A DNA stretch of 62,337 bases, counting the filler, from Hausera hauseri (Eukaryota), in assembly GCA_046269625.1 (NCBI GenBank). It is 12 parts of 12 records of this genome, joined end to end, with 100 filler letters (N's around TTAATTAATTAA, not from the genome) between each part and the next. Parts side by side here need not be neighbours in the genome. Positions count along the whole stretch, not along the records: positions 46,171 to 51,493 come from JBJURY010279840.1; 11 more parts are not named here. The stretch is one strand, 5' to 3'. Position 1 is the first letter of the stretch; each line of letters starts with the position of its first letter. Made by a program: the position numbers and the translations under genes. The notes below the pieces were generated by a model. It had not been told where the DNA came from. It was given only the letters and a program-made list of their open reading frames with translations, and did no database searches. Positions 46,171-49,840 of this stretch are shown here, piece after piece.

Positions 46171-47850
46171 AAACCTTTCATCTTAGCAACAGACACCAGC
46201 GATTGCGAAGTTGGCGCGGTACCATCACAAAAAAGCGAAGATGGAAAAGAACACCCAGTAGCTTGCGCATCGCGAAAATTAAACATACATCAAAAGAAAT
46301 ACGCAGTCATCTAAAAGGAATTATTGGTCGTAATATTCGCCTTGGAAGTATTTTCTTCATATATTAGTGAGAACAAGCCTTTGTTAATATATACTGATTA
46401 TAGACCCTTGCAGTGGTTAAAGCAACACGAAAATCCAAATAGCCGCTTGTTACGATGGGCTCTCAGACTGCAACCTTATACGATAAATTTTCAATATAAA
46501 CCCGGAACACGAAATGCAAATGCAGACTACTTATCGAGAATGAAGGGATCAACAAAAGAAAGGAAAGAAGTAGTTGAAGCTGTGTGGAACATGGACAGGT
46601 CTGCAGAAAAATACAGGAGAGTCAACAAGATGTTGAAATAAAATCCATTAGAAGTTATATACAGAGTAAAATCATACCACAGGACAAGGAATTAGTCCGT
46701 CACTTGGCCCGATTTGGTGATGCTTACGAAGAAAAAGAAGGATTTTTATACTACGTACACCAGGAGAGACCAGCACTGGTAATATCTAAGAAGAACAGAA
46801 AAGTTCTATTGACTCAACATCACGACGGACGTCTCGGCGGACACCAATCAGGTCGAAAAACCATAAATAAATTAAAAAGGAAATAATTCTGGCCGACAAG
46901 AACGAAAGACGTTCAAGAATGGTGCGATAGTTTCAAACTGTGTGCTACACGCAAAAACACCGGATCAAAGTTTAAAACTCTCCTCAAAGTGTAGGAAAAT
47001 CCCCCAGCTCCATTTGAATTCACCGCTATGGACATAACAGAACCATTACCATTACCAAGAAATGGGCACAAATACATTCTAGTCTTCATAGACTACTTTA
47101 CACGATGGGTCGTAGCATTACCATGTTGGATATGAGAGCGGACACAATTGCCAAAAAATTCGTAGAAAATATAATATTTAATTACGGAGCTCCAAGGATC
47201 CTACTCACAAACCAAGCCTCGAATTTAACGGGAAATATAATGCAAGCTATCTACGATATAATGCGAATATTAAAACTGCAATCAACTCCAGGATACCCAG
47301 AAAATAATGGCATGGTCGAAAGGTATATCGGAGACTTGAAATGCAAACTACAAACTGTTGTTAATACTAGACAAGACGACTGGGATGAATACATCAACGC
47401 TTGTGTATTCATAAATCGAACATCAGTGCAGGAACCTACAAAGGAAACACCGTTTTACTTAATGTTTTTGAAAGATGCCAGGTTACCCATCGATCTTGAC
47501 TTCAACATAAGGCCTACCTCTCATCTAATGGAAGTAGAAGAATACAAACAACTAATGCAAGAACGCTTACAGTCAGTATATAATATAGTGAAGGATAATC
47601 AGAAAGAGTATAAATTGATCTACAAGAAACACCACGATGAATAAACTAAACAACCAAAATTAAGGTTGTAGACAAAATGATGCTGTACACACCATTAAAT
47701 AAGAAAGGCAAGAGATCCAAATTGGATAGACCTTATAAAGGACCACACTAAGTAGATAAAGGGAATCTACCTAATATATTTTTAAAGAAAAACAACGCTA
47801 GAATCAAAGCACATGTCAACAGATGTAAACCTGTGCATAAGGAGAGCTAA
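46171..47850 (+). pseudogene. Ty3/Gypsy pol: RNase H and integrase, decayed
   Basis: PFILATDTS..ASRKL..KELL..YTDYRPLQWL; HHDGRLGGH; AMDITEPLP; PGYPENNGMVER; RPYKGPH; HVNRCKP. Confidence 0.92.
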
Positions 47851-47899
47851 TTAAGGAACGATGAACAGGAATTTGTAAGATCCATCGACCATAGAAAAA

Positions 47900-49840
47900 G
47901 AAGTAATAAAACTCCAGGTCACGAAGTATTTGGACATCTCTGTCTAATGACTCTTATAGAGATACCAGGCCTATTGGCTCAAACAACAAAACCACTGGAT
48001 TCATGGATGAGAATATTCCCTTCAAACGAAACGTTAGAAAGCAATCTGATGAAAAGTATTTATCACGAGATAACCTATACAAGGAAAGATCAAAATGTAT
48101 TAAGTTTATAGTGTTTAAAAGACTGCCCCATCAGTATATGATAGGAATTCAAGCAATTCATGAGTATGACAACAAACGAGATCCAGACCAACGGAAGTAT
48201 GATTGTGGCCTTACTTATTGGAAGAATACATGGGAATGTATAACGCATGACTTTGGTAATTATCTCATATACTATACTTTGATTAATAGACATAAGAATC
48301 GCTATCAATGGCAATATACCAAGTGCCGAGGTATCATACAGGTTCCTAATAGAAGAACAATGAATACAACCAAATTTGACGAAATAATAATGACCCAACT
48401 TATTGTTAGGCCGATAGGATTTAAAATGGACGAAGTTGTATCGAAATTAGAACAATGATACAGTTAGGAGAAAACAGAGTAATAAGTATAAGATTTACGG
48501 ATATCCAAGAGAAGCACAGGACGCTAACAAAATGCCAGTTGACTCATAGGTATCTCCGAGTCTGTTGTGATGCCTTATGAGGAAGCGTCTATGATTTAGA
48601 ATTTGTGTTAGTACAAAAGGATTCAGAGATCTCCAAGATTCTGATTCACCTAGGGCCCAGAACATACGTTCAACTTAAAAATACCATTGAATACAATGAT
48701 GACCAGCAGCCAAGTGTCACGACACCCTTTGCGAACCCCCCACTATCTAATAAAACAAAGATAGATATTGGAGAAATGACTGTTCTTATTCGACCTTACG
48801 CTTTACCCCATCATTAAAAATGCTCCGTCTTAGAAAAAGTTACAATCGAGGTCGATTTCTGTTAAGTGGTTTCGATGTCCGAATGTTGTGGATCTGTCAT
48901 AGCGTTCCAGATTTTTCTCGTTATAACTGTTCTAAAAACTATTCGGTACCACATGAAGTATGAAAGGTGAAGCACAGTCGACGATCATTAGTCTGGTCTA
49001 ATTTGGCCTTTATTTTTCCGACAATAATTGCCGCTTTTCAACGCACATTTCTCCTCGCTTTAATGTACCTTATCGCCGGTGGATTTTCTATGGTGTATCA
49101 TATGTGCAACTCAGATTATAGTGAATATAGCACGTGCATGTTACCTATTGATAATCTTGCTTACTCTAATCATATTGCTGCGGTCAGCAGCATTTGGGTC
49201 ATTATAATGGTATTCACGACGCCTCCCGACAGAATACAAATGATTTTAAATATAATAATGTTTTGTTTGTTCATTACTCGCTTGTGTGATTCGCAAATCG
49301 TTCTGGTTCTACCTTATACCTATAAGTATTGGAACAATAATCGTATTAGGATCCTGGAGATTTTGCATTTACCAATTACGAGCTATCTTAACATCCATTG
49401 ATTGGTGGCTTCTTGGTCTCTTACCGTGTCTAGTCTGTGCAACAATTACATTGGTTCTTTTCCGTTTGTCGGTAACTCATTGATACGAATATTACTTGTT
49501 CCATTCCCTTTGGAACATTCTTATCGCCTTGTCCATCTGCTTCGTTATTCCAAACAAAAAACGGTGGTCTAAAGCGTTGACTAGAAATTCCAATCAAGAA
49601 GACACATCCAGAAGATTTGATAATGTATTTCGAATCAATAACGAAATACGGCACTCATTCAAACAGGAAATAACAATCTTGGAAGGTGAACATATCATTG
49701 TTGTTGCAACATATGATTCGGATTTATTACTAGAAATGGATAATTATGTCGGATTTTTCTCTCGAATGCCTTCGGTAGGTCCCACTGGTCTAAACCAGAG
49801 TAGAATTCGGTTGGTGTTAAAGGATTGTACGTCATCGTAA
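47900..49840 (+). pseudogene. Accessory env-slot gene: two FN3-like modules, EGF remnant and TMEM8/PGAP6/Myomaker-family (CREST) multi-TM domain
   Basis: SLVWSNLAFIFPTIIA..LMYL..FSMVYHMC..CMLPIDNLAYSN..SSIWV..FHSLWNILIALSICFVIP, preceded by KC..NRGR..C..YNCS. Confidence 0.78.

Follow-up and report, generated by a model that had tools for sequence, protein, structure and literature searches.

Long terminal repeat (LTR) elements pick up host genes, and those of bdelloid rotifers carry lipases as third open reading frames (ORFs): the ORF3 product is a GDSL esterase/lipase, a lipid-acting protein in place of a true env, and was proposed to aid membrane passage, its activity itself being unproven in that account (PMC5408684). 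LTR-mediated retrocopies consist of partial, intron-free host mRNA within LTR-element sequence and can be chimeric and amplified again, and partial mRNA capture that replaces internal element sequence, with secondary amplification, has been described in animals (PMC5131818). Burro, a group of giant Gypsy elements of planarians, has a high copy number and hoards host-like domains (PMC6431247). Here we describe a locus of Hausera hauseri (assembly GCA_046269625.1) in which an accessory coding stretch comes after a decayed Ty3/Gypsy pol and precedes part of a gene of the TMEM8 family. All three lie on one 5.3-kb contig (positions 46171-51493; JBJURY010279840.1) of the window, the 62,337-nucleotide stretch of DNA that was analysed, which is made up of 12 contig pieces of 4 to 7 kb each with N-linkers between them.

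Within the TMEM8 family, PGAP6 (TMEM8A) was identified as a phospholipase A2 with specificity for glycosylphosphatidylinositol (GPI) that needs its conserved residues to shed GPI-anchored proteins (PMC5147002). Myomaker (TMEM8C) was described as a single-domain protein without an EGF domain or the conserved S and D (PMC3146951), and its origin was placed in the tunicate-vertebrate ancestor (bioRxiv 2021.07.24.453587). A sequence-only reading of the locus had proposed that a Gypsy element carries an intronless TMEM8/Myomaker-family gene in the env position, as a lipid-remodelling or fusion gene used instead of env. The likeliest reading of the present results, to which we would give an even chance, is that an element subfamily took a partial host TMEM8 mRNA by template switching and amplified it, because the TMEM8 piece lacks introns, is decayed and multi-copy, and shares its frame with an element-like ORF. 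The capture proposed earlier was therefore retained and its lipid-remodelling half fits the family, while the idea of fusion in place of env was poorly supported.

A DUF3522 match above the Pfam cut-off was found at 48988-49281 (E 3.4e-8; 34.3 bits against a cut-off of 29.3, and 37.9 bits in a second search), and the second half of the domain scored under the cut-off (E 1.3e-4). The SNLAF, FSMVYHMC and FHSLWN motifs reported earlier for the multi-transmembrane (TM) domain were present. A search of the TM piece against 1.84 billion representative sequences returned 24 matches, of which the best was P0002, a protein of 331 amino acids (E 5e-19), and the remaining 23 were at 3e-7 or weaker; the names among the ten matches examined were TMEM8B-like, PGAP6-like, EGF-domain and hypothetical proteins of molluscs, arthropods, a nemertean and a sturgeon entry. 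P0002 was collinear with the window from 48760 to 49669, where the alignment switches frame once, near 49261. This break was bridged by no GT-AG span 20 to 80 nucleotides (nt) long. These results indicated that the TMEM8 piece has no intron at 49261, in agreement with the intronless gene described earlier, and by the P0002 alignment it is an intron-free part of a host gene, as in a retrocopy, the introns of the host parent lying outside the data. Short introns were also considered behind the frame changes; these are impossible at 49261, and candidate spans exist at the other three breaks. The seven core helices were assigned from collinearity with P0002, whose model has seven, and six hydropathy peaks were seen in the window pieces. 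The domain is broken by the frame change near 49261 and by a stop at 49481, with a further stop at 48961 just ahead of it.

The EGF-like remnant recognised earlier at about 48820 to 48935 preserves the six-cysteine spacing that precedes the membrane domain in TMEM8A/B, with 3 of the 6 cysteines left, and gave no Pfam EGF match. Together with the seven-helix half it makes up the only TMEM8 portion of the contig (48820-49600). Three of the five conserved CREST residues (S, H, D, H, H) are kept in this copy, namely the S and the first two H, and the alignment columns bore out that the catalytic D and the last H both appear as N. Like TMEM8A/PGAP6 and the invertebrate EGF-type TMEM8s, the piece has an EGF ahead of a seven-helix DUF3522 domain and the SN, SxxxH and HxxxH positions; unlike TMEM8A/PGAP6, it is broken, carries N at the D and last H positions, has no detected TMEM8 ectodomain, is intron-free and multi-copy, and lies beside pol. 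When the N-terminal TM half was compared with relatives by overlapping, not identical, queries, it scored 85 bits with P0002, 47 with an EGF-type TMEM8 and 23 with the best Myomaker. On sequence grounds the piece is placed with the EGF-bearing, PGAP6-like type and not with Myomaker.

The TM domain of the window was 44% identical to P0002 and 22 to 26% identical to other TMEM8s. In a tree of 21 rows, from which Myomaker was left out and in which 2 of the 21 rows were poorly cut, the window and P0002 paired at 100/100 on a long stem. P0002 has all five CREST residues and appears as an intact, divergent TMEM8 whose record starts ∼20 residues before the EGF, close to the point in the window where homology, depth and codon bias change. 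Either an incomplete gene model or a copy carried by an element would account for this start. P0002, equally distant from the usual TMEM8s, might belong to a second species as an undamaged cargo of an element there. The P0002 model (mean predicted local distance difference test score [pLDDT] of 77, seven helices) matched Myomaker structures with an E of 1e-9 and a target TM-score of 0.89. This match shows family, not function, because the significant PDB sequence matches were Myomaker chains only. A shared-word homologue search, which covers longer proteins only and whose outcome carries little weight, found no relatives of P0002, of the upstream ORF or of the TM half, and scans of viral contigs, metagenomes and prokaryote genomes gave no locus and one related stretch, in viral contigs.

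The pol part was recognised from an RT_RNaseH match at the start of the contig (E 4e-29) and an Integrase_H2C2 match (E 5e-13) in Pfam, where the rve match was weak and under the cut-off, and from matches of the integrase core to the foamy-virus (E 9e-5) and Ty3 (E 0.002) integrases in the PDB. The order of RNase H then integrase, with a Gypsy-type RNase H profile, is that of a Gypsy element. The contig begins inside RNase H, so that gag, protease, reverse transcriptase, any env and the 5' LTR fall outside it. The pol reading stops at 47848-47850 and contains 5 internal stops and 3 frame changes, or 8 internal breaks in 1.6 kb. With reading frames picked by eye, for this count as for the fourfold-site tests below, the density of breaks per kb was ∼5 for pol, 4.0 for the EGF-TM part and 3.2 for the stretch between, which upheld the earlier view that gene and pol are similarly decayed. 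The gene was also confirmed to lie on the same strand, 3' of the integrase end (47850), with no LTR found between pol and the TMEM8 gene on the contig and no direct repeat of >27 nt within 46171-51493.

The stretch between pol and the EGF (47860-48814) is coding, because it holds a 182-codon open frame (47910-48458) whose length was reached by 0 of 2,000 shuffles. Because of this open frame, an LTR following the purine run at 47893 was rejected. It is followed by a 137-codon frame with two stops that reads into the first EGF cysteine, an in-frame run-in with a chance of one in three. The stretch had been taken earlier, up to about 48800, as part of the TMEM8 gene, and this assignment was not supported. 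Frameshift-aware alignment to a profile of 22 full-length TMEM8s gave 15.9 bits, against 14.1 ± 1.5 for shuffles, a score that was also reached in 11 of 60 shuffles and in 15 of the 92 tiles of the window; the hhalign probability against TMEM8 was 0.05%; no Pfam match was obtained in 47860-48814; and only ∼300 codons precede the EGF, against ∼480 TMEM8 profile positions. A single-sequence model of the stretch was beta-rich, with a pLDDT of 39 and no structural match. The long N-terminal ectodomain of TMEM8A/B was thus unsupported by profile, hhalign, Pfam or fold. Of the features read there earlier, the signal-like stretch survives as a weak hydrophobic start (19-residue hydropathy peak of 1.47) and the two Cys modules were matched by no family. 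A SPRY/Neuralized look-alike (Atlas 0.85, 124 shared features), without Pfam support, is a lead only.

Codon bias was then compared at fourfold sites. The A:T counts were 80:39 in pol, 43:24 in the upstream stretch (123:63 for the two together) and 28:35 in the EGF-TM part. Stratified by codon family, pol and the upstream stretch did not differ (p = 0.42), and both together differed from the TM part (p = 0.002), as did the upstream stretch alone (p = 0.045). A host-like INTS2 piece elsewhere in the window resembled the TM part at these sites (p = 0.63). The plain A-T cumulative curve peaked at 48532, ahead of ∼48800. The upstream 300 codons therefore behave like element DNA, with depth up to the pol level and the same A-rich codon bias. 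The rough coincidence of the change in codon bias, a drop in depth and the start of TMEM8 homology suggests that ∼48800 is a junction of element DNA with more recently acquired host DNA.

Copies were surveyed in one sequencing run, X1, which has 41% of the sampled words and may be the window's own source; 5,892 of its contigs aligned to the window at 80% likeness, and details are given by contig for 8 of 5,929 pieces and by site for 40 of 1,093 rows, among the matches listed. Summed contig depth was 618-7841 over pol (to 47772) and 473 where pol ends; for 47951-48484 it was 1859-9004, and for 48485-48840 it was 414-806. It was 40-73 over the TM part (48841-49730), 101-135 over 49731-50264, with 13-16 contigs at the listed sites, and 918-5940 past 50264. 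The low-copy contigs among those listed had a depth of 4-13 each. At the listed TM sites 7-8 other contigs were usual (range, 2-13), and one contig was ∼90% identical to the TM part over 332 nt. Overall, these data indicated that the TMEM8 half is present in multiple diverged copies yet is far rarer than pol.

All contig depth differed from the window at the TM-region stop codons (56/56 and 67.2/67.2) and at the last His/Asn codon (63.1/63.1), and contigs with length differences were found at two frame changes (13 at 48422 and 1 at 49260). The TM-region stops, the last His-to-Asn change and these two frame changes therefore look private to this copy, and hence the last His/Asn change reflects decay and not a Myomaker-like loss of catalysis. 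Two contigs jump from 49586 and 49594 to 49769 and 49809. As these contigs join the TM end to the 3' flank, the gene and flank were copied together.

The order of decayed Gypsy pol, accessory coding stretch, and EGF plus seven-helix half of TMEM8 can be explained by reverse transcriptase having switched to a co-packaged host TMEM8 mRNA, which would leave a partial, intron-free piece inside the element with its junction near 48800; the element subfamily would then have amplified the captured piece to several copies. The ancestral cargo was probably an intact PGAP6-type zinc hydrolase. If selected, it would most likely have acted in membrane lipid remodelling or the shedding of GPI-anchored proteins at particle formation, in parallel to the GDSL lipase ORF3 of rotifer elements, and thus as a helper, not as a fusogen. 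We give roughly equal odds to its having been selected and to its having been carried neutrally. Several points weigh against capture by template switching. The linkage to pol rests on this one locus, a single contig without an LTR pair, and no contig bridging the integrase and the upstream stretch, or the upstream stretch and the EGF, was present among the 8 of 5,929 pieces listed. The copy evidence comes from the single run X1, possibly the window's own source, in which a dip in depth is by itself no finding and the lower TM depth is soft evidence. The D/N codon falls outside the 40 of 1,093 rows listed, and the codon-bias test used 63 A/T sites in the TM part, in hand-picked frames.

It seems unlikely, though worth weighing, that all 650 codons belong to a single, highly divergent TMEM8 of full length (signal, ectodomain, EGF and seven helices), which entered the family long ago and whose membrane half was lost from the abundant copies or filtered out in the run. 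The layout is like that of TMEM8A/B, the frames continue from the upstream stretch into the EGF, the model of the upstream stretch is beta-rich, and a TM domain only 22 to 26% identical to ordinary TMEM8s leaves room for an ectodomain that escaped detection; yet the profile score lay among those of shuffles and window tiles, hhalign found next to nothing, too few codons precede the EGF, and the two halves differ in codon bias. We consider it similarly improbable that TMEM8 was amplified by some other route, such as carriage 5' of the downstream gag element, a DNA transposon or segmental duplication, and adjoins pol only at one nested locus. Elements are densely nested in this region, a homologous gag on contig 15015-22157 is likewise flanked 5', with matching orientation, by a decayed INTS2, and the lack of a bridging contig among the listed pieces would fit; against this, pol and the gene are separated by no LTR or long repeat, the EGF start is in frame with the element-like ORF, and depth climbs only past 50265, ∼430 nt beyond the stop. 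A resident TMEM8 locus of the host, flanked left and right by inserted elements, would have overturned the earlier reading and is very improbable: a fast-evolving host could explain the long branch shared with P0002, whereas the stops and frame changes, the 7-8 other contigs per site, the lack of introns and the absence of a TMEM8 ectodomain upstream all speak against it.

Equally remote is the proposal that the captured gene is a Myomaker-like fusion or budding protein in the place of env. It sits after integrase and shares Myomaker's fold family, and N at the D and last H positions recalls Myomaker, also described as lacking catalytic residues (PMC3146951). Myomaker is, unlike this piece, a single domain without EGF, S or D and is reported from tunicates and vertebrates only (PMC3146951; bioRxiv 2021.07.24.453587), while an EGF remnant and the SxxxH serine are present here, the last His change is private, P0002 keeps all five CREST residues, the bit scores favour P0002 and EGF-type TMEM8 over Myomaker, and tunicate and amphioxus EGF-type Tmem8 were reported to give no fusion (bioRxiv 2021.07.24.453587). 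The post-integrase slot, moreover, need not be an env slot, because env lies between gag and pol in Burro, as part of one polyprotein (PMC6431247), and in flatworm errantiviruses (PMC13524379). Contig 1-4489 of the window, of similar base composition, also carries env before pol. On the contig with the TMEM8 piece, no fusion-protein profile was found by Pfam 3' of the integrase, where errantiviruses would have an F- or gB-type glycoprotein as an extra ORF; whether an env also existed here depends on the 5' half of the element, which lies off the contig. The claim of a fusion gene used instead of env was accordingly given little weight, and capture of a partial PGAP6-like TMEM8 remains the preferred reading.

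The features of the contig are collected below.

Features of the contig at 46171-51493 (window positions)
Feature	Coordinates	Strand	Basis
Decayed Ty3/Gypsy pol, 3' part (RNase H; zinc finger, core and C-terminal part of integrase)	46171..47850	+	Pfam, PDB matches, breaks
Element-like accessory coding stretch, three successive frames, weak hydrophobic start	47860..48814	+	Open frame, depth, codon bias
EGF-like remnant; frame change near 48832	48821..48935	+	Alignment to P0002, columns, translation
TMEM8/DUF3522 seven-helix CREST domain, intron-free, broken	48988..49582	+	Pfam, P0002 alignment
C-terminal tail up to stop; varies among copies	49583..49840	+	Translation; contig jumps in run X1
Multi-copy 3' flank, with a copy level roughly that of the TMEM8 piece	49841..50337		Depth 101-135 over 49731-50264
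Gag-like region of a second, different high-copy LTR element	50338..51479	+	tblastx, depth

In the 3' flank (49841-50337) no LTR was identified and no Pfam match was obtained. A processed pseudogene with a poly(A) near 49906 was considered, since an A-run and signal-like hexamers are present, and was rejected, as the sequence farther into the flank has just as many copies and shows no return of the high-copy element. The gag-like region (50338-51479) gave no Pfam match and was homologous by tblastx (E 6e-33) to the element on contig 15015-22157; this gag may be of CsRN1 type. On that contig a decayed INTS2 piece (20658-21401, minus strand; Pfam E 4e-29, PDB E 7e-13), open for 247 codons, is separated by two unassigned open frames (20134-20640 and 19691-20167) from the homologous gag-pol. 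By tetranucleotide profile the piece starting at 46171 groups with those starting at 1, 9454, 15015 and 51594 (r = 0.89-0.91, against 0.05-0.84 for the other seven), and these five are therefore probably from one animal.

Several other contigs of the window carry element-like sequence. On the minus strand of 1-4489, an ORF at 2630-3910 joins, in one frame, a Bcl-2-like stretch (E 2e-4, under the cut-off) and a fusion protein of mononegavirus type (E 4e-10), and this ORF lies upstream of a reading that is presumably protease-like from its motif. Since planarian Burro elements have this order, the host may be flatworm-like. An 866-codon open frame with a membrane-like stretch (12358-14958, minus strand) had no significant Pfam match; its C-terminal part we assume to be exonuclease-like. 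Its contig shares a 124-nt, 93% identical stretch with 1-4489, and it is possibly another cargo-bearing relative. ORF fragments at 4590-9353 and 22258-26846 are presumably Polinton-like, and a decayed Tc5/DDE_1 transposase lies at 32569-36532. An intact 851-codon gag-protease-like frame (36581-39136, minus strand) is on a contig of different composition, which is probably from another host. The contig at 26947-32468 is phage-like, with ORFs that we take to be terminase-, lysozyme- and tail-like, and the window therefore mixes organisms.

Comparison with the described systems placed the locus near several of them. The bdelloid ORF3 proteins are soluble SGNH hydrolases with intact catalytic residues, unlike the decayed, intramembrane CREST hydrolase seen here (PMC5408684). 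Unlike the retrocopies described, the TMEM8 piece seems to share the frame of an element ORF and to exist as several diverged copies, and junction micro-similarity and LTRs lie outside the data (PMC5131818). Contig 1-4489 has the Bcl-2, fusion protein and protease order of Burro, and the portion of the Burro account drawn on here lists no TMEM8 or post-integrase membrane enzyme, unlike the window element (PMC6431247); the window pol and this Burro-like contig have no overlapping sequence for comparison. Giant DNA viruses also carry CREST proteins, with ceramidase, PAQR and hemolysin III-like models, and DUF3522 clusters were rich in viruses (leads under 0.9); those viruses, unlike this element, are DNA viruses without a noted EGF and are not retroelements.

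The literature listings searched, outside subscription papers, repeat libraries and supplements, described no retroelement that carries TMEM8 or any other CREST gene, and the main text of an eLife survey of env-bearing Gypsy elements contained neither TMEM nor myomaker. TMEM8 would thus be a new cargo for a known process of host-gene capture. A more speculative account, which we regard as doubtful, is that, in an animal whose genome also has Burro-like elements, some lineage of Gypsy joined an intramembrane hydrolase of the TMEM8/PGAP6 type to its post-integrase ORF and kept it under selection as a helper of particle release, through membrane remodelling or the shedding of GPI-anchored proteins; it would be the first CREST enzyme in a retroelement that these searches found. 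If neutral, the locus would be one more gene-fragment capture in a transposon-rich genome. If selected, it would mean that a lipid enzyme of the cell surface was taken up by a retrotransposon to help it spread, and would provide a natural test of the function of invertebrate TMEM8 proteins.

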